From positions 1-40,204 of the IMG/VR virus record IMGVR_UViG_3300037851_001126: 40,204 bases of DNA. One strand, written 5' to 3'. Source of the DNA: a virus. Taxonomy: Duplodnaviria; Caudoviricetes. The notes beneath the pieces were generated by a model. It worked only from the letters and a program-made list of their open reading frames with translations. It had not been told where the DNA came from and searched no databases. Both the position numbers and the translations under genes were made by a program. Of the stretch, positions 4,317-40,204 are shown piece by piece (the stretch's first letter is position 1; each line of letters starts with the position of its first letter).

Positions 4317-6142
4317 GCGGTGTACGTCTCCGTCATCAAGATCTTCGCTTTCTTGGCCACGCCATTTTCGCAGACATCGACCTCGCGAAACATCGCGTGA
4401 AGCTGGGGCGCGATCGCCGCGGGATCGAGCGTCACCATCTGCGCGCCGTTGACCAGCACGATCTTCTCGAAACCGCCCGGCGCGCTGGCGCTCGAGTTTT
4501 CCACTCGGGTTTTGTGCGGCAGCTCCTGTTCGCCGCCCTGCACCTGCTGGCCGCTGACGCGCAACTGCCAATCGCCGCCGCTGAACATCCGGTGGCGGTT
4601 GACCCGCAACAGCTCCACCAGGTCGCCCGCGCTCAAGTGCGGCGGCGGCCCGACCGCGATCTGCACCTGGCCGGTTTCCAGCGACTCGGTGACCTGCTGC
4701 ACCTGCGCGGCCATCGTCGCCCATGCAGCGCGTCCCCCGGTGACGTGCAACACGTTACCCACCCGCACCGGGGCGTTGACCTCGCTGTAGAGCAGCGAGA
4801 TCTGGCCCTCGTGGTGCAGCGTGTTGAGCGCGGCGTAGAGTTTCTGCGCCAGCCCGGTCGGCACCGGCTCGCCCGGCGAAAACGCATCGAGTTTCTTGTA
4901 CGTCTTAGTGGTGGCATCGGTGGCGATCAACCGCACCGTGATCGGCTGCTCCTTGACCACGGTGACAAGCGGATTGGTCCCCGAGACGGTGTGCGTGTAA
5001 CTGGCCTTGGCCGTCCAAGTCTCCTGGCTGGCGTCCTTGGTCATCCAGTCCGCGATCCCGCCCTGAACGAGTTCGCGCGGCAGATTCACCTCGTCGAGAG
5101 GATCGTCCACCACCCGCACCGCGCCGGTGATCGTCAAGTTGGTCACCGCGTCCACGGCCAGTTCCGGTTTCTTCTTTTTCCACCAGTCCAGGTCATTGAG
5201 ATCGGCCGGCAGATCGGCCGTCACCACCTTCTGGCTGAGGTAACTGGCCGTGAACCCCTTGAGGTTGACCGTGGCCAGCATCGCCCCGAACGCCTCGCCG
5301 GTCGAGGCCTCGGGCCAGACATCGAGCGTCACATTCTCCCAGGTCACACCGTCGATCGTGGTGGTCTGCTCGAACTTGAGCACCACCTGCGGCACCTGCA
5401 GATCGTTGCGCGCCCGCAGCTCCACCGAGTCGACCTCCGACCCGCACGCCACGCTCTTGGCCGCCAGCGCGCTGCGCGGCGCCACGTGCAACGTCGGCGG
5501 CGTCGTGCTGTAATCTAACCACGTGCACGCGTCCGGCGCCCAGCGCAGACAACGGCGCACCGCCTCGGCGCACGTCACGTCCTGCACGGGATCGAACGGC
5601 GCGGTAAACGCCAGCCCGTCGTCCACCGCGTACTGGAACGGCGCCGGTGCGCCCGCCACCTCCAGCACATAATCGAATATCTCCTCGATCTGAGACTTCA
5701 CCGTCTTGGCGACACCCAGGTGATCCACGAACAAAATCAACCGCGACTTGCGAATCGATGTCGTCCCCCCGAGCAGGTCGGAGATCGTCCATGTCTGCTG
5801 AAACACCAGGTTGTCCAAATACCACCACGGCCCGGCCGCCACGACCCGCTGGTTCTCGCCCGCCGCGTCCCCGCCGTCCGGCAACTCGATCACCCGACCG
5901 ACAAAATACACCTGGTCCTCCACCAGCACCGGCACTTCGGCATCCGTGTACACCTTCCGGTGCAGCTTGATCGTGGACCCGTAAGCGAACACGTGCGCCG
6001 CGTCCACATCCCGCCCGGCCGCGCTCACCGCCAGCGTGTCCGGCGCCTGGTTCAAAAACGACAACACCGGCTCGGCCAACCCCCAGGCGTCCACCGTCTG
6101 CTGGTTGCCCCCGACCACCTCAATTGTCCATTCGACCGCCAT
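4313..6142 (-). CDS. Tail tip/hub protein
   Basis: 609-aa beta-rich ORF directly after the tape measure gene. Confidence 0.6.
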   Translation of the reverse strand: MAVEWTIEVVGGNQQTVDAWGLAEPVLSFLNQAPDTLAVSAAGRDVDAAHVFAYGSTIKLHRKVYTDAEVPVLVEDQVYFVGRVIELPDGGDAAGENQRVVAAGPWWYLDNLVFQQTWTISDLLGGTTSIRKSRLILFVDHLGVAKTVKSQIEEIFDYVLEVAGAPAPFQYAVDDGLAFTAPFDPVQDVTCAEAVRRCLRWAPDACTWLDYSTTPPTLHVAPRSALAAKSVACGSEVDSVELRARNDLQVPQVVLKFEQTTTIDGVTWENVTLDVWPEASTGEAFGAMLATVNLKGFTASYLSQKVVTADLPADLNDLDWWKKKKPELAVDAVTNLTITGAVRVVDDPLDEVNLPRELVQGGIADWMTKDASQETWTAKASYTHTVSGTNPLVTVVKEQPITVRLIATDATTKTYKKLDAFSPGEPVPTGLAQKLYAALNTLHHEGQISLLYSEVNAPVRVGNVLHVTGGRAAWATMAAQVQQVTESLETGQVQIAVGPPPHLSAGDLVELLRVNRHRMFSGGDWQLRVSGQQVQGGEQELPHKTRVENSSASAPGGFEKIVLVNGAQMVTLDPAAIAPQLHAMFREVDVCENGVAKKAKILMTETYTA

Positions 6143-6145
6143 CCG

Positions 6146-8962
6146 CTAGACGTTCCTCATGTTGTTCACCCTACCCTCGATGTCGCGCAGTTTGGCATCG
6201 TGTTTTTCCACCACCGCCAACAGCTTCGAGGTCGACCCCTCGATGCGGCCAAACGCGTCGCCGATCTGCTGGGCCGCGGCGGACAACGCCCCTTCTACCC
6301 CTCGCGTGTCCACCGGCGGCAAAGCAGCAGCAGCAGCAGGAGCGGCAACCGGAGACGGAGCGGGCCGCGCGGGAGCCGCCGGTGCGGCAGGCGCGGGCGC
6401 GGGCGTGGCTGGCGGTGGTGTTGCGGCCGGCGGGCGGGGCGCTGGCGGAACTGCCGCGGGAGCAGACGGTGCCGGTGCTGGCGCGGCTGGCGGCTGCGCC
6501 GGAGCTGCCGGCGGCGGCTTGGCTGGTGGCGGTGGTGTGACAGCCGGGGCGGGTGGAATCGGCGGCCGGGCCGGTGCGTTGGACGGGAGCCTGTCGAGTT
6601 CCTTCTGCACGTCCGCCGCAGTGGTCTTGCTCGGGGCAGGCTCGGTCCGATCCGCCCGCCCCTGGCGCTCTCTCGCGTCGGCCGCATCAGCCGCCGCGAT
6701 GCGTTTCGCCTTGTCGGGGTCCGTGCCGGCCACAAGCCGCAACCGCGCGATCTCGGCCTTGCGTTCATCCTCGGCGGCATCGTCAGCCGCGCGCGCCCGC
6801 GCCTCGGCGGCGTTATCTTCAATCTTGCGGATGTCATTGGCCAGCCGCGTGTAAAATTCCTTGAGCGCCGCCTCGGCTTGGGCTTTCTCGGACGGCGTCT
6901 CCGCCAGTTCGACCGCGCGCTTTTTCTCCTCCTCCTCGATCTTGGCCACGGCCAGTTTCTTGGCCCGTTTCTGGTCGTCGGGCGCGTCGGCCTCCGCCTG
7001 CCTGGCATCGGCCAGGCGGACGTCGCGTTCGGCCTGCTCGCCCCGGATCGCCTCGCGGCGTTTCTCCGCCGCCTCCCGCGCTGCCTTTTCCTCCGACGCT
7101 TTTTTGTTCGCCGCATCCTTGGCTTTGGCCTGGTCGATTTGCGCTGTTTGGTCGACTTGCTCCTTCTCAACGCGCAAGGCCCGCAGTTTCTCCAGTTGCT
7201 CGCGTTCGCGCTGCAACGCTTCCCGACGTTTTTCCAATTCGGGCACGGAATCAGCCTGGGCTTTTTCCAGCGCCTTGAGCGCCTCCTCGGCCTTGGCCAA
7301 CTCGTCCTCCCGCGCCGCCAGCGCTTTGCCGTCGAACCCGCCGCCATCGAGCGCGGCCTGCGCAGCCTGCGCGCGCGCCACAGCCTGGGCATATTCTTTG
7401 CCGTACAAGCTGCCCAAAGCCAAGACCTGCTCTTCCGCCTGCTCCAAATCCGCTTTTGCTTTGGCGTAAGCTTCCCGCTCAATGGGGACACCGCCGATCG
7501 TCCTCCCCTCCTCATACCCGCGCACCTGTTTGGCTATACGATCCCGCTCGTCCTGCGCCCGCTTCAGCGTGTCCCCGATGCTCTCCAGCAGATTCTTGTC
7601 GGAGATGGCGGTCTGTTGCGCCTCCCTGGTGATCCGCGCTTTCTCCGCCGCCGTATCGCGCTGCGTCGTGAGATCGGTCTTGGCTTTTTTCTGGGCCTCG
7701 ATCTCGGTTTCGACGGCTTGCTGCGCCTGGGCATTGGACTGCAGCAACGCCTTTTGCTTTTGCTCGCTCGCACCGGAAGCGATACCGGCACGTTGCGAGG
7801 CCGCTTCTTCCTCGGAGATTTTTCCCTGTTGCAGATCGAGATTGACACGCGATAACGCCAGTTCCGTTTCCGCGTCGATCACCTCCAGCGTCTTGCGCGT
7901 CACATCGTTCAACTGGGTCAGGTAATCGCGCATCCCCTTCGACGATGCCGCCAACGTCTCGTTGACCTTGCCGATCGCGGTGGCCAACGCCTCCTGACGC
8001 TTGGCCGCGTTGCCTTCCGACTCCGCCAGCCCGTCAATCTTGTTCTTCAACCCCTCCAGTTTGTCGATCGGGCCGCCGATGATCGACGTCAGGTTCTGCA
8101 CCGTCTGCTTCAACCCGTCGATGAGCTGCGACAGTTTGAGTATCTTGTCCAGGCCGCCGCCGATGGCCTCCATCAAATCGCCCGTGGCATTCTTCAATCC
8201 GCCGAGCGACCCGGAGAGCGTCTGGGCTTTGGCCTCGAGCACGCCGCCGCCCATGCGGGCGACCTGTTCCATCAGGCTGTTGAGTTTCTCCAGGTTGGTG
8301 CCGGTCTCCTGCACACGGATGCCGTACCGGCCGAACATGTCGAACTGCCCCTGCAACGCCCGACTCATCAGCATGCTGGCCGTGTCGATCGATCCCACCA
8401 CGCCCGCCAGATTCTTCACCGCCTCGGCGTACTGCTCGATGTTGGTCGAGTCCGCGCCGAACTGCGTCAACTGTTTCAGTACCCGCAGCCATTGATCGTC
8501 GGCGATCGCCGTCGAGTCCTGCATCTGACCGGCCAGATCCTGCAGCTTCACCCGGTAGTTATCGGTCAACTGCCCCGTCTGCGCCAGGACCGCGTCCAGC
8601 TCCGCCACGGCTTCCTGTGCCTGGGCGAACTCGCGCAGGCTGGCCACCGCGCCGCGGATCGCCGCCGTCACGGATGTCACGCCGAGCGTCACCATGCCGA
8701 GCGACCCGTTGAGCACGTTCATCGCCGCGCCCACGCCGGGGATCTCCGACGCGAACGCCCCGATCGCCGACTTGAATTTGTCCCCCGCACCAAACCCGGC
8801 CAACTGCCCGCGCACGCCACTTAACTGGGTTTCCAGGTCCTTGTATTCCTTGCCCGTAGCCCGGGCGATCACGATCTGGCGCTGGAGCGAATCCTCCAGC
8901 TTGCGCAGCTCCTGGATCTGCACCCGGCTCTCGATGTTGACTTGGAATTTAACGTCGGCCAT
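6146..8962 (-). CDS. Tail tape measure protein with Pro/Ala-rich C-terminal linker
   Basis: 938 aa, Ala/Glu/Lys-rich coiled coil, 'AKAQTLSGSLGGLKNATGDLMEAIG' TMP-like segment, position after tail tube. Confidence 0.85.
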   Translation of the reverse strand: MADVKFQVNIESRVQIQELRKLEDSLQRQIVIARATGKEYKDLETQLSGVRGQLAGFGAGDKFKSAIGAFASEIPGVGAAMNVLNGSLGMVTLGVTSVTAAIRGAVASLREFAQAQEAVAELDAVLAQTGQLTDNYRVKLQDLAGQMQDSTAIADDQWLRVLKQLTQFGADSTNIEQYAEAVKNLAGVVGSIDTASMLMSRALQGQFDMFGRYGIRVQETGTNLEKLNSLMEQVARMGGGVLEAKAQTLSGSLGGLKNATGDLMEAIGGGLDKILKLSQLIDGLKQTVQNLTSIIGGPIDKLEGLKNKIDGLAESEGNAAKRQEALATAIGKVNETLAASSKGMRDYLTQLNDVTRKTLEVIDAETELALSRVNLDLQQGKISEEEAASQRAGIASGASEQKQKALLQSNAQAQQAVETEIEAQKKAKTDLTTQRDTAAEKARITREAQQTAISDKNLLESIGDTLKRAQDERDRIAKQVRGYEEGRTIGGVPIEREAYAKAKADLEQAEEQVLALGSLYGKEYAQAVARAQAAQAALDGGGFDGKALAAREDELAKAEEALKALEKAQADSVPELEKRREALQREREQLEKLRALRVEKEQVDQTAQIDQAKAKDAANKKASEEKAAREAAEKRREAIRGEQAERDVRLADARQAEADAPDDQKRAKKLAVAKIEEEEKKRAVELAETPSEKAQAEAALKEFYTRLANDIRKIEDNAAEARARAADDAAEDERKAEIARLRLVAGTDPDKAKRIAAADAADARERQGRADRTEPAPSKTTAADVQKELDRLPSNAPARPPIPPAPAVTPPPPAKPPPAAPAQPPAAPAPAPSAPAAVPPAPRPPAATPPPATPAPAPAAPAAPARPAPSPVAAPAAAAALPPVDTRGVEGALSAAAQQIGDAFGRIEGSTSKLLAVVEKHDAKLRDIEGRVNNMRNV

Positions 8963-18072: not shown

Positions 18073-19347
18073 TTACGATTCCTCCTGGTTGGTTTCTTCA
18101 GCGAATAATTCGGGTTTCTCCGTTTGCACGGCGGCCCAGGCCTGGGCGTAGCCGCAGCGGTTGGCCAGCATCTTGGAGCGGACAGCCTCCTCGATCTGCT
18201 GGGGCTTGGTCTTCGCGACGCTGCTGCCGGGCGTCGGTTTGCCCGCGCGATTGTGCAACGCGGGTTTCTCCACCGGCTTGAGCGCCTGGAGCATCTCAAG
18301 ACCCGACTTGCGGTCGTTCAGCAACACCTTGCGCATCGCCTCCTTGTTGGCGATCCGATCGGCGTACTGCGCCAGGTCCGTCTCGACCTGCGCTTCGAGC
18401 AGCTCGCGGCTGTTCTTCTTCAGGTCCGCATTCGCTGTCTCCAGCGATGCAGCCCGATTCTTCAGCGTGGTCACGGCCTCGACGACGGCGCTATCCGCCG
18501 CGTCGGCGGCCAAGCCCAACGCTGTGATCAGTTTGTCCTTCATGTGGGACTCCTTGTGTGTGGGTTTGGTTTCTGCGCCGCTCGGGCCGTTGCCCGTGGC
18601 GCGGTTTGACAGGGGCACCATGCCCCGCAAATTGGGTTGGTTGGTCAGCCCCACCGAGTCGAGCCGACGGGGGCGGACCTTGCCGCCGCCCAGGTCTTCG
18701 CAATCGGCCCGGGCCCAGACGGGCGAGACGAACCGGTACAGTCCATTGGCAATGGCTTCGCGGCCGACCGGGGTCAGATCGATCTTGGCCCACAGCCCGT
18801 TGGACCGCTTGGCCAACTCCTTGATCCAGCCCATGGCGGTCGACGGCTTGTCGGGCTGGTAACTGAAATGGTCCTGGTCCACCAGGATCTCCTCGCCGCC
18901 GTCGCGGAAACTGTTGACCATCGCCTCCAGCGCGGCGTCATCGAGCACCTGGGTCAGCCCGGTCTCGCTGTGCGGGTATTCGCCCGTCGGCGCCACCTGC
19001 ACCCAGCCATCGGCCGGCAAGCTGCGGTTCAACATCGGCATCGCATTCCTCATCACATCCTCCGTGGTCTCCGGTCCCCGGTCTCCGGTCCCCGGTCCCT
19101 CCTTCGCCGCTTTCTCGATCAGGTCGGTCATCTCGCCCACGATCGCCGCCTCGAGTTCGCGGGCGGTATCGGCATCGGTATTGGCCCGGCGCAGCAACTG
19201 CGGCAGGTCCGCCACCAGCTCGCGCAGCTCCTGCAACGCGTCCGCCGCGTCGCCCTGGGCCAGCGCCTTTTCCAGCCGCCGCCGCAACGGCGCCTGGTCG
19301 TTGACCAGCCCCGCCGCCACATCCGCAATCCGTTGTTTCGGGGTCAT
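18073..19347 (-). CDS. Mu-like prohead protease/scaffold (gpI) with an extra N-terminal helical segment
   Basis: VDQDH...AMGWIKEL...GLWAKIDLT..G...YRFVSP...SVGLTNQPNL motifs; possible internal start at 19053 with GGAGG RBS. Confidence 0.9.
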   Translation of the reverse strand: MTPKQRIADVAAGLVNDQAPLRRRLEKALAQGDAADALQELRELVADLPQLLRRANTDADTARELEAAIVGEMTDLIEKAAKEGPGTGDRGPETTEDVMRNAMPMLNRSLPADGWVQVAPTGEYPHSETGLTQVLDDAALEAMVNSFRDGGEEILVDQDHFSYQPDKPSTAMGWIKELAKRSNGLWAKIDLTPVGREAIANGLYRFVSPVWARADCEDLGGGKVRPRRLDSVGLTNQPNLRGMVPLSNRATGNGPSGAETKPTHKESHMKDKLITALGLAADAADSAVVEAVTTLKNRAASLETANADLKKNSRELLEAQVETDLAQYADRIANKEAMRKVLLNDRKSGLEMLQALKPVEKPALHNRAGKPTPGSSVAKTKPQQIEEAVRSKMLANRCGYAQAWAAVQTEKPELFAEETNQEES

Positions 19348-19350
19348 TGC

Positions 19351-19379
19351 TTGACCTCCGCCAGCGGGTGGGCAAAATG
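19351..19379 (+). promoter_or_regulatory. 29-bp promoter-like direct repeat, copy 1
   Basis: TTGACCTCCGCCAGCGGGTGGGCAAAATG; TTGACC-N16-CAAAAT just before ATG 19385. Confidence 0.7.
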
Positions 19380-19384
19380 GCGCC

Positions 19385-19804
19385 ATGACACCCGATCAAT
19401 TCCGTGAGATTTGCGACTGGGCGAACCGCCGCGAGGAGAAGTTCTATGCGTGGCTGCGGTTCCTTGTAGGGCTTGCCGCAGTGTCGCTATCGGTTCTGGC
19501 AGTGCTCCCGTCGGCGGCGGGGGCAACCGCATCGGATACCCTGTTGCGGAAGGTGTCGTGGACAGGACTTGGACTCGGTATCCTGCTTGGAGCATTAGCG
19601 CTGCACGGCGAAGTGTGGATCGAACGCGCGCTGGTGAAGTCGTTGGTGCAACAAAGAACACAACCGACTTGGCCCGGTAGCGACGCAGCGCCTTCGCCCA
19701 TCGTCGCAAAATTGCCCTGGCCGTACCGCTGGGCCGTGCCGGGTTGTTACCTGTCATTGGCAATGGCAGTGGGTTCACTGGTGACCTCCGTGTGGCTGCG
19801 CTGA
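19385..19804 (+). CDS. Membrane protein (3 predicted TM segments), moron
   Basis: Hydrophobic segments; antisense to the late operon; own promoter. Confidence 0.7.
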   Translation: MTPDQFREICDWANRREEKFYAWLRFLVGLAAVSLSVLAVLPSAAGATASDTLLRKVSWTGLGLGILLGALALHGEVWIERALVKSLVQQRTQPTWPGSDAAPSPIVAKLPWPYRWAVPGCYLSLAMAVGSLVTSVWLR

Positions 19805-19808
19805 TCGT

Positions 19809-19837
19809 TTGACCTCCGCCAGCGGGTGGGCAAAATG
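19809..19837 (+). promoter_or_regulatory. 29-bp promoter-like direct repeat, copy 2
   Basis: Identical to 19351-19379; precedes ATG 19843. Confidence 0.7.
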
Positions 19838-19842
19838 AGGAG

Positions 19843-20250
19843 ATGGATTGGCTAACGGAAATCGAATGGGTCGCAGACTGGCAGTTGCGTCTGGGAACAG
19901 TGGAATGTCCGACGGTACCGGGCCGCACGCCTGAAGAACGCGCCCGTGCAGTCGCAGGGCTAGAGCGACGCACCAGCGCGTCCACCGACGCGCTCTGCCG
20001 GCAACTCGCGCGCGGCAACCCCGTGGCAGCGACGGATGCGGAACGGTATTTTCTCCGACAACGGCTGCATCAGGCGTTGCGGTTCCTGGAGGCGGCGGCC
20101 ACACCGTTTCCGGTGCGGGGAGCGCCGGTGCTGCAAGTGCCCGCGTCAGTTGATCCAGAATCGCGGCGCGAGTGGCTGCTGATTGCGCTGTGGGACTCCA
20201 CGCTGCGCGACGAATGGATTGCCAATCCAACAACGAGCACATTCGATTGA
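19843..20250 (+). CDS. Helical hypothetical protein, candidate immunity family member
   Basis: Resembles 38079-38492 (..RLG..; FL..R...AL..LEA; R.WLL..[LV]W). Confidence 0.65.
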   Translation: MDWLTEIEWVADWQLRLGTVECPTVPGRTPEERARAVAGLERRTSASTDALCRQLARGNPVAATDAERYFLRQRLHQALRFLEAAATPFPVRGAPVLQVPASVDPESRREWLLIALWDSTLRDEWIANPTTSTFD

Positions 20251-20358
20251 GCCGCTGCGCATCCAGCCGCTCCCAGTCGTGCCTCTCCTTGACCAGTGCC
20301 ACTTTGGTATTCATCGTGCGCCTCCTGCTGTTTTGCGGCTGGCGCGGCAACGAGCGAA

Positions 20359-20489
20359 TGATGGACATATCCCTTGAGGGACCTGCCACCGCTGACCGTC
20401 AATCCATATTGCTCGAATTCGTTTTGGTGGACTATTGGGAGTTTGCCGTCCGCTACCGATGGGAGCAGCGGCGGCACCATCTGGGGTAA
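20359..20489 (+). pseudogene. Short/truncated third member of the 19843/38079 family
   Basis: PATADRQSILLEFVLVDYWE resembles PSIGDQNRIRSWLLRDVWE and PASVDPESRREWLLIALWD. Confidence 0.35.
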
Positions 20490-20530
20490 GCCCCCACAGT
20501 TCCACAACGAAATTCCACGGCAACACCCGC

Positions 20531-20559
20531 TTGACGCCCGCGCGGGCGGAGAGTAGATT
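20531..20559 (+). promoter_or_regulatory. Sigma70-like promoter TTGACG-N17-TAGATT with CCCGCGCGGG palindrome in the spacer
   Basis: Near-consensus hexamers at 17-bp spacing; spacer related to the 29-bp repeats. Confidence 0.65.
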
Positions 20560-20565
20560 TCCGTC

Positions 20566-20639
20566 AGAGCCTGTTCGGTGCCGGCTGCGGCGTAACCGGA
20601 CAGGAAGTGCCACCACGGCAGCCCGTGAGTCGGTGCTCT
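20566..20639 (+). ncRNA. Putative 74-nt multi-stem structured RNA convergent on the portal-nuclease gene
   Basis: AGAGC/GCTCT closing stem; CCTGTTCGGT/ACCGGACAGG 10-bp stem; TGCC/GGCA and CCG/CGG hairpins; begins at the expected +1 of the promoter. Confidence 0.45.
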
Positions 20640-22420
20640 TATTTCGCATAAATCAGTTCCCCTTTCCGATAGTTGTTCAGCTTTCGGATTTTGCTGACCT
20701 TGTAGAAACTCTCGGCCCCGCCGCGTCGTTGCACCACGAAAACCGTGCCGCCGGAAACCATCCCGCGAGCATCTTTGAAAAGCCCAATATACACATCGTT
20801 GTTGTCCTGCTGCCAAATCTCGACGGGGCTTTTCACCGACGCCTTGGCGTGCGGCAGGAATTCAGCGCGATTCAGTTGGTCGGGGCGTTGAAAATGCGCC
20901 ATCGTCTGACGGTCAAACCTCACTCCGTTGCCCAAAGGATCCATCTCTGTGACGCCCTGCCATAATTCTCGTTCGCCGTCGACCACAGACAAGGATCGTG
21001 GTTCATCCACCGCCAGATGCGCCAGGTCTCGGATGTCCGGTCTCCCGTGTTCTCGCCAGTCTTTGCCAATAAAAAATCGATTGCCGTCGCCGTCGGTTAT
21101 CCATGCATTCACCAACCGATCCCACACCCGCCGCATCCGGTTCACCAGCCCGCCTTCGGCCTCTTCCTCGTCGCCGACAGTCTCCGGTCCCCGGTCTCCG
21201 GTCTCCGGTCTCCGTTCCTGCCGCCGCACCAGCTCATAGCCGGTCCGCTCGCTCAGCTCCTCGAGATCGATCGCGTACCCGGCCTGGGAGAGTTTCACCG
21301 CGTGATCCACCAGCGCGCCCACGTCCTCCTCGTCGGTCGCCGCCAACTCGAAATACGCCAGCGCCGGTTTGCCCGGGAACAACTCCGCCAGCACCAGCGC
21401 GTCCAATCCCTTCTGGAACACCTCGCTGATCTCCAGCGCCTCGGCCCGGGCAATGTCGTCAAACACGTCCCCGTGCTCGCCGCTCGCCCCCTGGCCAATG
21501 CCGGTCGGCCCGCTCAACATCGTCAGTTTCCCGCCCGTGCCGGCCAGCACCAGTTGCTCGGCCAGGTGATCGAGCCGCTGCTTGAACGGCGATTCGCCCA
21601 GGCCCGCCGTCGGAAATTTCGCGTCCCCCCCATACGGCAGCGCGCCGGGGATGCCGTCGGCAATCGCCTCCGCCGCGCTCTTGTATTCCGCCTCTTTCTC
21701 CACCGGCACCTGCGGCGGCATGATGACCACCGGCCGCGGGATGCCGTACACCTCGATGAACGCGTCCCAATCCTTCTCGCTCAGGCCGCTGCGCACATAC
21801 TGGATCAGCGCGATCTCGTTGAGCGGATCTTCCACCTCGCGCACCAGCAGCGTTCCCAAATCCACCGGCTCGCCCACCACACGGCCACTGGCCGAATCGG
21901 CGTTGTACGTCCACGGACCATACAGCCCGTCCCGACACCAGAACCATTGATCCACGCACTCCAGGTGATTGGTCTCGGAGGGCAGGACCGGAGACCGGGG
22001 ACCGGAGACCGGAGACTGAGGACCGCGCACTTGCCGTTCAATGTGCGCGAACCCGCGAAACTCGGCCAGCGCCAGGAACCGGATCGCCGCCCGCAGGTTG
22101 TCGATCTTGTCATACGCCGCCCGCAACGCCGCCGCCTGGTCTTCGGCCAGCGCCTCGTCCACGCCCTCGGTGGACACGGTCTTGATCGCCCAATCGAGCT
22201 TGGCGATCGCGCCCAGCCGACGGGCTTTCAGCGCCCGCAACACCGGGTGCCGTTTCTCGATCATCCGATACAGCCAGGTCAGGTCCGCATACGCCCCGCG
22301 CTCGCCTTCCTCCAGCAGACTGGCCGCCCGCTGAATCGTCAGCCCGCGCAGCGGGTTGTACTGGCTCCGCCACTTGTTGGCCGACGACAAGTGACGCGGC
22401 AGTGTCATCGCTCCGCTCAT
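20639..22420 (-). CDS. Portal protein (Mu gp29/DUF935-like) fused to a C-terminal PBECR2-like nuclease domain
   Basis: DUF935 motifs (GFAHIE, KDWDAFIEVYGIP, GEHGDVFDDI); last ~155 aa lower GC with R..FL...K..P.EIW...YIGLF...RKGELIY pattern. Confidence 0.85.
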   Translation of the reverse strand: MSGAMTLPRHLSSANKWRSQYNPLRGLTIQRAASLLEEGERGAYADLTWLYRMIEKRHPVLRALKARRLGAIAKLDWAIKTVSTEGVDEALAEDQAAALRAAYDKIDNLRAAIRFLALAEFRGFAHIERQVRGPQSPVSGPRSPVLPSETNHLECVDQWFWCRDGLYGPWTYNADSASGRVVGEPVDLGTLLVREVEDPLNEIALIQYVRSGLSEKDWDAFIEVYGIPRPVVIMPPQVPVEKEAEYKSAAEAIADGIPGALPYGGDAKFPTAGLGESPFKQRLDHLAEQLVLAGTGGKLTMLSGPTGIGQGASGEHGDVFDDIARAEALEISEVFQKGLDALVLAELFPGKPALAYFELAATDEEDVGALVDHAVKLSQAGYAIDLEELSERTGYELVRRQERRPETGDRGPETVGDEEEAEGGLVNRMRRVWDRLVNAWITDGDGNRFFIGKDWREHGRPDIRDLAHLAVDEPRSLSVVDGERELWQGVTEMDPLGNGVRFDRQTMAHFQRPDQLNRAEFLPHAKASVKSPVEIWQQDNNDVYIGLFKDARGMVSGGTVFVVQRRGGAESFYKVSKIRKLNNYRKGELIYAK

Positions 22421-36393: not shown

Positions 36394-37800
36394 ATGCCTG
36401 ACACCCTCACATTCGCCCCCATGCCCCACGATGAAGCCTCCCGCTTCATCCGTCTCAAGCCGTCCATCTCCCGCCAGGTCTTCGACCAGATGCTGCCCGA
36501 ACTCCAGGCCCGCACCTTCGTCATCTCCGGGATCGAAAACCTCAAGATCATGCAGACCGTCCGCGACGCCATCGCCAAAATCCCCGAAGGCGCCGACTGG
36601 GACGCCACCAAACGCACCGTCACCGACCTCATCGCCTCCATCGGCGACAAAGCCCCGCAACGCGCCGAAACCCTCCTGCGCACCCACGTCTTCCAAGCCT
36701 ACGCCGCCGCCGAACACCGCGCCCTCACCACGCCCGAAAACCTCGAAGTCTTTCCCTTTTGGCAGTACAAAACCATGGGCGACGACCGAGTCCGCGACTC
36801 ACACGCCGCGCTCGACGACCTCATCCTGCCGTCCAACGACGTCTTCTGGAAGACCCATTTCCCACCCTGGGAATGGGGCTGCCGCTGCCAGGTCATCCCA
36901 CGCCTGCGCGCCGAAGTCGACGAAATCAAACAGCGCGAACGCGATCTGCCGCCCGAGAAAAAAACCGTCATCGACCACGACCAACCCGCCCGCCTGGCCC
37001 GCCTGCGCGCCGGCACCCTCGACCGCCAACTGCCGGCCACCGACCCGCGCGGCCCCGACGTCGGCCTCGCCCAGCTCGGCCAGTCCCGCACCTGGGACGT
37101 CACCTCCGACGCCGAGCGAGGCAAAGAAGGCGCCCTCCAGTGGGATCCCGGCTCCCTCAACCTCGACATCGCCGACCTCAAAACCAAGTACGACCCCGAT
37201 CTCTGGCTCGCCTTCGAGACCGCCATGCGCGCCCACCAAATCCCCGAACTCGGCGCCTCCGCCTGGGAATGGGTCACCCGCAACACCCCCCAATGGACCG
37301 CCACCGTCAATGCCAAAACCCGCACCAGCGTCATCGCCCGCATCGAGTCCGGTATCCGCGGCAAAACCAGCGGCGAGGTGGCTTTCGTTGTCGGTGCCGA
37401 TGGTGTAAATTATCCCGTGAAACAGGCAGCAGGAACAACCATGATTCTCTCCAGCCAAGAGCTCCAACAATTCGCCGGCAAGACTGGAATACACAATCAC
37501 CCGGCCTCCAGCGCGTACTCACCCGAAGACCTGCGCAGTTTCGTGGACTCCGGTGCCGTCGAGTGGCGCGTGGTCGGACCGGAAACCAGTTATATAATGC
37601 GCCGTCCACCTGGCGGCTGGCCAAAGGATGTACATGACAAAATTAACGGGCTGGAAAAGCGCTACTTTGCGATCGCTGCGCGTCGTGAACGGTATGGACA
37701 CGATCGTATCGACCTAGATAAATGGGCGGCCCATCGCATTTGGAGCGATTGGGCTAACGATGTTGGGGCCCCATTTCAATTCATAGCGGAGATGCCATGA
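36394..37800 (+). CDS. MuF head morphogenesis protein with C-terminal JAB-like candidate toxin domain
   Basis: FWQYKTMGDDRVRDSHAALD...FWKTHFPPWEWGCRCQV (MuF); C-terminus E...HNHPASSAYSPED, lower GC. Confidence 0.88.
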   Translation: MPDTLTFAPMPHDEASRFIRLKPSISRQVFDQMLPELQARTFVISGIENLKIMQTVRDAIAKIPEGADWDATKRTVTDLIASIGDKAPQRAETLLRTHVFQAYAAAEHRALTTPENLEVFPFWQYKTMGDDRVRDSHAALDDLILPSNDVFWKTHFPPWEWGCRCQVIPRLRAEVDEIKQRERDLPPEKKTVIDHDQPARLARLRAGTLDRQLPATDPRGPDVGLAQLGQSRTWDVTSDAERGKEGALQWDPGSLNLDIADLKTKYDPDLWLAFETAMRAHQIPELGASAWEWVTRNTPQWTATVNAKTRTSVIARIESGIRGKTSGEVAFVVGADGVNYPVKQAAGTTMILSSQELQQFAGKTGIHNHPASSAYSPEDLRSFVDSGAVEWRVVGPETSYIMRRPPGGWPKDVHDKINGLEKRYFAIAARRERYGHDRIDLDKWAAHRIWSDWANDVGAPFQFIAEMP

Positions 37801-38072
37801 CAGAAAAAAAGTACATCATAGATGGCGATAATCACTTACTCGGGGGCACAGCCAAATCAGGTAAGGAACTGGTTGATATGTATTGGCGTCTTGACCAAGA
37901 AGGAGCATTGCTGTTTGCCGACGAATATGAAGGTTTGCGGCGTGAACTGGACCGTTATGAAGGGCAACCCGACTCTGATCTGGACGCCTACAGGCGTTGG
38001 CGCCTCGACCGCCTCCGCACCTTCTTCGTCGCTCACCCCAATCCGCCACCCGCCCCCAAAGATCAGCCATGA
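37797..38072 (+). CDS. Candidate cognate immunity protein of the MuF toxin
   Basis: 91 aa, ATGA-coupled to MuF, same low-GC block. Confidence 0.55.
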   Translation: MTEKKYIIDGDNHLLGGTAKSGKELVDMYWRLDQEGALLFADEYEGLRRELDRYEGQPDSDLDAYRRWRLDRLRTFFVAHPNPPPAPKDQP

Positions 38073-38521: not shown

Positions 38522-38761
38522 ATGAACAACCCCTGGCTCAAACTCGCCCTCATCATCACGGCCTGGGACGACCTCCTGCGCGCCGATCTCGCCTGCGGCA
38601 TCGCCTGGTTCCGTCTCAAATACGCCGAACTCCGCCGCTACCTCCTCGCCCGCCGCCTCCAACGCCTCATCCGCCGCATCCAATCCGACCCCCAATTCGC
38701 CTCTCTTTCGGCTCATAGGCACGTAGGCACTCCGGCACCTAAGCACTCTCACTCCCCATGA
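38522..38761 (+). CDS. Small basic hypothetical protein
   Basis: 79 aa, coupled to polX. Confidence 0.5.
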   Translation: MNNPWLKLALIITAWDDLLRADLACGIAWFRLKYAELRRYLLARRLQRLIRRIQSDPQFASLSAHRHVGTPAPKHSHSP

Positions 38762-39483
38762 CCACCACCGTCGACATCCCCTTCCTCCCCGAACCGACGC
38801 CCTACGAGATACCCTCCGCCGACACCCCATCCGTCCCCAAGGTCCCATCCGTCCCATCTTCCCCATCCCCCTCTCCAATCTCCAATCTCCAATCTCAAAT
38901 CCCTTCTCCGCCGCGCCTCCTGCTCGCCCGCGCGCGAGCCATCGGCGAACACGTCGCCGACGCCCTGCGCCCCTTCTGCCACCAGATCGCCATCGCCGGC
39001 TCCATCCGACGCCAACGCCCCACCTGCGGCGACATCGACCTGGTCGTTTTGCCCGCCGACCTGCCCGGCCTGCTCGCCCGCGTCCGCCAATCCTGCACCA
39101 TCAAATCCTCCGGTGACCTCAACACCATCGCCGTCATGTCCAACGGCGTCCAACTCGACATCTTCTGCGCCCGCCCCGCCGGTCAAGACCTCTTTTCCCC
39201 CACACCCGGCACCTGGGGCACGCTCCTGCTCTGCCGCACCGGCTCCAAGCAGTTTAACATCTGGCTCGCCGACCAGGCCAAAGCCCGCGGCCTCCACTGG
39301 AACCCCTACCGCGGCCTCTGCCGCGGCGGATCCCTCACCGGCCAAATCATCGCCGCCGAAACCGAGGAATCCATCTTCCAAGCCCTCGACCTGCCCGTCA
39401 TCGATCCCACCGACCGCGACGACCCATCCCGCTGGCCTCCTCTGAAATCTCCAATCTCCAATCTCAAATCTCCGCCCCCATGA
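38758..39483 (+). CDS. polX: Minimal X-family DNA polymerase (palm+thumb only)
   Basis: IAGSIRRQRPTCGDIDLVV, VQLDIF, WGTLLLCRTGSKQFN...AKARG, TEESIFQALDLP.I.P..R. Confidence 0.85.
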   Translation: MTTTVDIPFLPEPTPYEIPSADTPSVPKVPSVPSSPSPSPISNLQSQIPSPPRLLLARARAIGEHVADALRPFCHQIAIAGSIRRQRPTCGDIDLVVLPADLPGLLARVRQSCTIKSSGDLNTIAVMSNGVQLDIFCARPAGQDLFSPTPGTWGTLLLCRTGSKQFNIWLADQAKARGLHWNPYRGLCRGGSLTGQIIAAETEESIFQALDLPVIDPTDRDDPSRWPPLKSPISNLKSPPP

Positions 39484-39957: not shown

Positions 39958-40077
39958 GCCGCCACAAAACTCTCAAACTTCTCATCTTCGTCCGCCGCCT
40001 TCCCGACCCCCACATTCTCAACTACTTCCGCCTATTCCCGCCTTCTTCCGCCTTTCTTTAATTCAGCGGGGTTGCTC
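39958..40077 (-). promoter_or_regulatory. Prophage right end with inverted end motif
   Basis: Minus strand TTTGAGAGTTTTGTGGCGG (39959-39977) vs left TTTGAGAGTTTTGGGCGG; weaker TTGAGAAT at 40014-40021. Confidence 0.65.
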
Positions 40078-40204
40078 GCTGTGTTGCCGCAATCGTCGGT
40101 GGCGGTCCAGGTCCGGGTCAGTGTGTAGCTGTTGGGGCAGGTGCCATCCGTGCGTGTCTCAGTGAAATCGACCGGCACATGGGCGTCGCAGTTGTCCGAG
40201 GCGG
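40078..40204 (-). pseudogene. Upstream part of the interrupted host HYR-like repeat gene (begins with right TSD GCTGT)
   Basis: Same 240-bp unit; frame now runs into the phage end as ...DDCGNTASNPAELKKGGRRRE* (stop 40032-40034). Confidence 0.8.

Follow-up and report, generated by a model that had tools for sequence, protein, structure and literature searches.

Does the portal gene of this phage really end in a toxin-like RNase domain and, if it does, how would such a cargo be freed from the portal, and what would hold it in check in the cell that makes it? These questions arise from a stretch of 40,204 nucleotides of a Caudoviricetes virus (IMG/VR record IMGVR_UViG_3300037851_001126), here called the window, in which a preliminary description had seen a portal-borne polymorphic toxin. 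The coordinates of the features discussed are collected in Table 1.

Portal gene and in-frame fusion

The portal gene is a single open frame of 589 residues (593 if the ATG at 22420 is used), placed between the large terminase and a Mu-like I protease on a 40-kb record that also carries transposase, capsid and neck genes. This position, together with a match to Portal_Mu (PF06074, 109 bits), puts it among the Mu-type portals, and its relatives in the PDB are the portals 8RKA and 9KHX (E 1e-16 for the latter). As its portal relatives come mostly from Verrucomicrobiota, the phage host is likely a member of that phylum. A frameshift or stop at the portal/PBECR2 junction is rejected, since the frame is open and the same in-frame junction recurs in the independent metagenome contig L002 (99.86% identity over 1451 nt) and in contig X1-4, which covers 20092-21648 with zero differences (X1-X3 are possibly the source of the window). 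One single, short contig of low depth (X2-12) departs from this sequence near 21159-21177 and appears to come from a related strain. The preliminary description had the portal running in frame into a lower-GC C-terminal part with the pattern R..FL...K..P.EIW...YIGLF...R.G.LIY, and all of this stands: the open frame and the Pfam match agree with L002 and X1-4, the pattern is in the translation, and GC in the last 157 codons is 0.54 (third position 0.62) against 0.67 (0.86) in the portal core.

The assignment of this part to PBECR2 is likewise borne out, as PF18810 matches residues 486-587 above the Pfam cut-off of 27.1 bits, scoring 33.4 bits when the whole protein is searched and 37.4 bits when the last 173 residues are. 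The fusion is therefore real but of a known kind, the available text of Iyer 2017 (PMC5512222) having already named MuF and portal proteins as fusion partners of PBECR domains. The same text gives a His plus Ser/Thr configuration as the PBECR active site, and the cargo has a His in its N-terminal helix and a Ser/Thr in a late strand: in a domain model made from an alignment of 40 relatives (pLDDT 91.6), His505 ends helix 68-72 and Ser567 lies within strand 132-139. His505 is kept in 40/40 and Ser/Thr567 in 36/40 aligned relatives, a conservation that is biased upward because the set was collected with the same query. In the full-length portal model the cargo is poorly predicted (pLDDT <50).

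The top seven matches of a wide structure search are all chains of toxins or of toxin complexes, among them CdiA, BrnT, colicin D and the sequence-specific RNase 3AO9, and all are weak (Z 3.7-5.1; for the best, Z 5.1, rmsd 3.8, 88 aligned); Foldseek against the PDB and a viral library gave zero matches at E 0.001, with E values above 0.02. This fold search points to the group in which a preprint, in its available part, places PBECRs, namely that of colicin D/E5/CdiA with a conserved His (bioRxiv 10.64898/2026.08.28.747851). The PBECR2 cargo is predicted to be an RNase. A protein search for the domain alone at its own length and a tblastn search of the phage collection returned zero matches, and viral contigs carrying the domain pair were not found.

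Table 1. Features of the portal region and the evidence on which each is placed
Feature	Position	Strand	Basis
Mu-like I protease/scaffold gene with several Asn-Arg motifs	18073..19347	-	Pfam, motif count
Helical tail that normally ends these portals, displaced to the start of the protease frame	19126..19341	-	Profile, E 7.6e-12
Inserted gene, 139 aa, hydrophobic; own promoter 19351-19378	19385..19804	+	ORF, Pfam, promoter scan
Inserted gene, 135 aa, no family; own promoter 19809-19836	19843..20250	+	ORF, Pfam, promoter scan
Convergent sigma70-like promoter, TTGACG-17-TAGATT	20531..20559	+	Promoter scan; same place in L003, different spacer
Predicted small RNA; 3' end meets the portal stop codon	20565..20642	+	Conservation, fold, loop search, covariance model
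Portal gene: Mu-type core, low-confidence linker, PBECR2 cargo	20639..22408	-	Open frame, Pfam, PDB relatives, model
PBECR2 cargo, aa 434-589; His505 and Ser567 predicted catalytic	20639..21109	-	Pfam, alignment, model, structure search, GC
Asn423-Arg424 and Asn434-Ala435 with a short predicted helix between them: swap point of the cassette, predicted sites of the maturation protease	21104..21142	-	Cleavage inferred
Heptamer tract in linker; genome-wide repeat	21180..21214		Tract search of window
Portal_Mu core, aa 45-390	21239..22276	-	Pfam

A mobile cassette

The domain has its closest relative (69%) at the end of the MuF-like protein P0004, whose gene lies downstream of capsid and adaptor-like genes, and the likeness starts at Asn434. 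Among the 49 matches of a representative search, the carriers are Mu portals, a lambda-type portal, MuF, MuF2 and a Mu protease. That DUF935 homologues would vary C-terminally had been anticipated, and our survey found an extra C-terminal domain on 13 of 119 related portals: PBECR1 (2), PBECR2 (2), PBECR3 (2), ART (1) and unnamed (6), several of these calls scoring slightly below the family cut-offs. One of the unnamed types appears BECR-like in Atlas (0.91). As in polymorphic toxins, a conserved carrier thus bears variable C-terminal domains, and the toxin domain occurs on several carriers. The variable portals and the relative on MuF together lead us to conclude, by sequence comparison, that the C-terminal PBECR2 domain is a mobile cassette.

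An equal Asn-Arg, short helix and Asn layout is seen in the nearest portal, P0053 (70%), where a helical tail follows it. In the window this tail is found at the start of the protease frame, by a profile match (Table 1), pairwise BLAST being below significance, and its displacement implies that the cassette and two promoter-bearing genes were inserted ahead of it. The promoters of these two genes are a 29-bp repeat of each other. Other domains occupy the same kind of site elsewhere: a topoisomerase IB-like domain (PF01028) lies between Asn-Arg motifs in the L079 portal, and a ParB-like domain, recognized by eye and without a Pfam match, in those of L037, L041 and L130.

The GGTCTCC heptamer tract in the linker had been taken to mark the junction, a claim that fails. 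Eleven such tracts occur in the window, one of them within the portal core (21986-22016), and homology to the nearest domain relative begins only at Asn434, about 70 nt beyond the tract; genome-wide occurrence and this homology start rule it out as a junction signal. The swap point of the cassette, as placed by alignment, is the Asn-Arg/Ala motif. Tracts of 4-5 copies, in either orientation and often intragenic, stand at 19066, 21180, 21986, 23857, 27465, 28694, 30758 and 34430.

The Asn-Arg motif and probable release in the head

Asn-Arg is present in 113 of 118 portal tails, with 139 occurrences observed against 21 expected, and is similarly enriched in 134 protease/scaffold frames (934 against 174); directly behind the protease domain, 109 of 116 have an Asn with Arg, Ser or Ala as the next residue. 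Portal cores (122/103), capsid (111/88) and terminase (90/103) have no such excess. The motif would thus mark predicted maturation-protease sites across the whole group of Mu-like phages, and would explain how an essential portal tolerates interchangeable cargo.

In the virion structure of Mu, the homologous portal gp29 (9KHX) is without its last 124 residues, a loss ascribed to protease I in the available text (PMC11915804), and the crown of the related JBD30 portal is described as pointing to the capsid interior (PMC11445458). Here, unlike in Mu, the region that would be clipped contains a folded cargo, and the usual helical tail lies in the protease frame. Because the Mu portal tail is reported to be cut by protease I, release of the cargo inside the head is, by analogy, likely, with cuts at Asn423 and/or Asn434, and a clipped domain is more likely than one left tethered to the portal. 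The motif alone cannot fix the cut sites, as two further Asn-Arg motifs lie inside the cargo (443, 513). The cut pieces may leave the head, just as the JBD30 scaffold is said to exit it after cutting (PMC11445458, in its available part). In P0162 and L138, portal and protease share one frame with Asn-Arg motifs between them, a natural polyprotein.

A predicted RNA gene behind the portal stop

The element that we describe next (20531-20642) lies outside the range flagged by the preliminary description. Compared with L003 and L004, which carry the domain as well, the window has 68/75 identity behind the portal stop, 100/150 in the last codons and 39/100 further out, making the non-coding segment behind the stop the best-conserved part of the cassette. 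In the window and in L003 a sigma70-like promoter faces this 75-base segment, with unrelated spacers. The convergent strand folds into two hairpins, the same pair in the window (z -2.3) as in L003 (z -2.5), compared with -0.6 for the mRNA strand; in the window they span 20570-20605 and 20607-20637, and their loops (20583-20588 and 20618-20623) are complementary over 6 bases. Rfam covariance models gave 0 matches at E up to 1 in 19000-21500. A small, convergent, structured RNA gene is predicted behind the portal stop.

A protein partner was sought in the same neighbourhood. The frame 20311-20649, which overlaps the portal stop, was rejected as an immunity gene, having 5 replacement against 2 silent changes and an early stop in L003, and the two inserted genes (19385-20250) are unmatched in L003/L004 by blastn; the adjacent frames thus include none that is conserved as a protein immunity gene would be. 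The next long frame is the protease in 7 of 11 loci with BECR cargo, and the ART and topoisomerase cargoes have an overlapping small gene directly behind them. Small downstream frames in L052 and L131 are candidate protein partners.

Recurrence behind PBECR domains

By our first rule, a convergent promoter was found in 9/12 portals with BECR-type cargo, in 0/6 with other cargo and in 11/132 plain portals. A fixed, strict rule placed one behind 11 of 23 PBECR2 domains (1.2 expected, 0 forward, 2 inside the domain), seven of the eleven at +107 to +110, and in 1/112 plain portals. The same rule found it behind 4/10 PBECR3 domains and only 2/16 PBECR1 domains (0.9 expected, 2 forward). A matrix trained on 18 PBECR2 promoters, built after this miss and set by construction to a threshold of 6/112 plain portals, gave 13/16 for PBECR1 (2.0 expected, forward 0) and 9/10 for PBECR3 (1.7 expected, forward 3), some of the scored loci being near copies. 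The counts by the first rule, those for PBECR1, PBECR3 and plain portals by the strict rule and those by the matrix exclude loci with less than 200-240 nt downstream, and the looser-rule survey leaves out one short locus and duplicates. In L177 and L194, and by the looser rule in L178, the promoter lies within polyvalent-protein coding sequence, at +107 nt.

Loop tests covered the short class, 16 of the 23 PBECR2 loci. In an automatic search for two hairpins joined by a loop-loop helix, 10 of these 16 RNAs beat all 40 shuffles, with near-identical geometry and different loop sequences; the search found no helix in L003 and L194, and L174, L177, L178 and L188 stayed below significance. Cognate loops are more complementary than permuted ones (5.19 vs 4.21 bp, p 1e-5; p 0.06 in a duplex-energy version), in a test whose windows were chosen after the sequences had been viewed and whose related loci are not independent. 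Across four portal loci independent of the window, 10/25 pairs change on both sides, which 0/500 shuffles equalled and which is far above slid controls, the control ignoring relatedness among the loci. MAFFT misaligned the RNAs repeatedly, and the alignment used for one co-variation count had loop 2 out of register in four rows.

A covariance model from those four loci (R2) placed 20567-20642(+) at the top of its matches in the window (E 0.0016, against 0.53 for the runner-up). Its score there, 20.4 bits, is reached at unrelated sites in 9 of 141 genomes, the genome samples around G406 and G001 being one and the same; we treated these 9 weak matches, none beside a PBECR2 frame, as chance. Over 150 loci, R2 recovered the four loci from which it was built and L067, together with weak matches at three sites (L045 with E 0.08, L132 and L159), and missed L177, L178, L180, L185, L186 and L194, as well as L003 under default filters. 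A model from three other loci (R1) matched only its training loci and did not recover the window RNA. From the R1 miss and the weak R2 score it follows that the loci have their architecture in common and are akin in sequence only within subgroups. The 2 matches to a 17-nt RNA pattern were judged chance. Rfam yielded one unrelated tRNA in 20 PBECR2 loci and 0 matches in 20 PBECR1/3 loci. Taken as predictions, convergent structured RNAs appear to recur across three PBECR families.

Several individual loci add observations of their own. PBECR1 domains are followed by an element with a closing stem, conserved AAC and GUAG joints and often a terminator (L226, L227, L229, L231-L233, L238, L099, L131); its descriptor gave 9 such matches and 1 stray in 240 loci, an in-sample count in which L229 is unchecked against its gene. 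Eight PBECR3 loci (L216-L220, L223, L100, L159) have, by eye, a common GGACGU-type motif on the convergent strand. An extra PBECR2-type RNA copy with its own promoter (58 bits) stands in L067 at 6091-6166, behind a different BECR-like cargo and overlapped only by a 52-aa remnant frame. In L177, L178, L194, L215, L224, L058 and L072 the RNA-like element, mostly with promoter, is overprinted antisense within long coding sequences, and it is read-through of this element that makes up several annotated C-terminal 'tails' behind BECR domains.

Relation to known systems

In type III toxin-antitoxin systems such as ToxIN, an RNase is restrained by a pseudoknotted small RNA, which in ToxIN consists of tandem repeats encoded upstream of the toxin gene and in its orientation, and is cut by the toxin. 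The window resembles these systems in having an adjacent small RNA with a predicted loop-loop pseudoknot and co-variation, and differs in that the RNA is single-copy, downstream and on the opposite strand, with its own promoter and a putative inhibitory role. Moreover, the fold of ToxN is a different one, and the enzyme here is part of a virion protein.

Among phage systems, the available text on MuF polymorphic toxins describes a head protein with a variable C-terminal toxin domain and proposed delivery with the DNA (Jamet 2017, PMC5576092), as we suggest here; our carrier, however, is the portal, and a convergent RNA-like gene stands where a downstream immunity protein would be expected. The PBECR fusions of Iyer 2017 (PMC5512222) share with ours PF18810, the carrier logic and the predicted His plus Ser/Thr site, but in the available text they have no RNA partner or release motif described, and the main text has no mention of noncoding or small RNA, antisense or promoter. 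For the colicin-like BECR tRNases, the partners described in the accessible part of the preprint are proteins, and the word 'antisense' occurs 0 times (bioRxiv 10.64898/2026.08.28.747851). A search of Rfam and of largely open-access literature on MuF or BECR with RNA antitoxin, antisense or kissing loop returned nothing on an RNA partner. A convergent RNA partner of PBECR domains thus appears to be undescribed.

Proposed mechanism and alternatives

We propose, giving it a probability just short of even, that PBECR2 domain and RNA form a mobile cassette on the portal, in which the protease would free the RNase in the head, the RNase would be injected and the RNA would inhibit it in phage-carrying cells. 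Late expression would yield the portal-cargo fusion protein, which the head protease would cut at Asn423/Asn434, leaving free cargo inside the head; up to 12 copies could be kept there and ejected with the DNA. The injected cargo would cut host RNA, perhaps tRNA by analogy with colicin-like BECR enzymes. From its sigma70-like, host-type promoter, the small RNA would be made in the lysogen and in the producing cell, where it may directly bind and inhibit the PBECR2 domain, replacing the usual immunity protein. An RNA the size of a tRNA, its two loops joined in a helix, would fit an uncleavable substrate mimic, which is the most speculative step. More tentatively, the PBECR class as a whole could consist of ribonucleoprotein systems, each family with its own convergent structured RNA as immunity factor, acting as substrate mimic, of a virion-delivered RNase.

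The linkage, family-specific RNA motifs and structure would also fit if the RNA were payload or cofactor, with PBECR2 binding (perhaps trimming) its own RNA and the complex being packaged and injected as decoy or effector against host defence. The argument in the available text of Iyer 2017 (PMC5512222) that PBECRs may spare host tRNA, and that the Mu copy is an inactive RNA binder, also leans this way. We nevertheless consider a payload unlikely: the predicted catalytic His and Ser/Thr are kept, the promoter is host-type like those of the neighbouring inserted genes and fits lysogen expression better than late packaging, and the extra RNA copy of L067 lacks an intact cognate domain, like orphan immunity genes.

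Quite improbable is a cis-antisense, type I-like role, in which the convergent transcript would pair or collide with the late mRNA and damp leaky cargo expression in the lysogen without binding protein. Its promoter is convergent, its 3' end lies at the stop codon and it is inevitably complementary to read-through mRNA, yet pairing needs neither a co-varying loop-loop helix nor family-specific motifs, portal and protease would be silenced too, and non-BECR cargoes have no such promoter (0/6). Still less credit goes to a cargo that is clipped off and acts in the producing cell or is discarded, and so is never injected; according to the available texts, cut scaffold leaves JBD30 procapsids (PMC11445458) and the Mu portal tail is unseen in the virion map (PMC11915804), but the same domains are carried by MuF and polyvalent proteins that are presumed to be packaged, and their repeated placement on portal, MuF and protease is best explained by delivery. 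Least probable of all, and very unlikely, is the plain model of the preliminary description, a classical portal-borne polymorphic toxin with a nearby protein immunity gene and incidental downstream DNA: a small frame does follow 89% of MuF toxin genes in the available part of PMC5576092, and two inserted genes without family lie nearby, but these have no counterpart in L003/L004 by blastn, and it is the non-coding segment that is best conserved.

In phage polyvalent proteins PBECR domains are frequent, up to 26% in the available text of Iyer 2017 (PMC5512222), and the PBECR literature searched, as far as its accessible texts go, assigns no substrate or inhibitor. A cognate RNA gene behind the domain would offer a simple handle on PBECR function and on phage self-survival. 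Should the RNA be an inhibitor, as we favour, RNA antitoxins would extend from intracellular modules to injected phage effectors, with a route to superinfection immunity; if it were payload, phages would inject protein-RNA complexes. The class-wide reading, if true, would amount to a polymorphic toxin system with RNA immunity, and phages would have many RNAs missing from the catalogues, some of them overprinted in polyvalent-protein genes.

Other features of the window

The separate MuF gene, claimed as a further toxin of the same phage, is present at 36394-37800 (+), with its own C-terminal domain, an unnamed fold that recurs on MuF, minor capsid and portal proteins. This His-Asn-His-Pro domain has no Pfam name, and its JAB/RadC leads are weak (under 0.9). 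A 91-aa frame overlapping the MuF end is a candidate protein partner, and this MuF region (36394-38072, +) lies far from the portal, among transposition-side genes. A DNA polymerase beta/X-like thumb and palm fragment adjoins the neck gene at 38758-39483 (+).

In L002 (1445-1451) and in a contig of run X2, position 39329 is joined to 20092, the two sides overlapping by 7 bases, and to the right of 20092 the depth rises roughly threefold in X1 and X2; a variant that lacks the protease, capsid and tail genes seems common in these samples. Finally, positions 1-1834 and 40075-40204 hold a 240-base tandem repeat of 7.6 copies within a minus-strand gene, and the contig ends overlap there.
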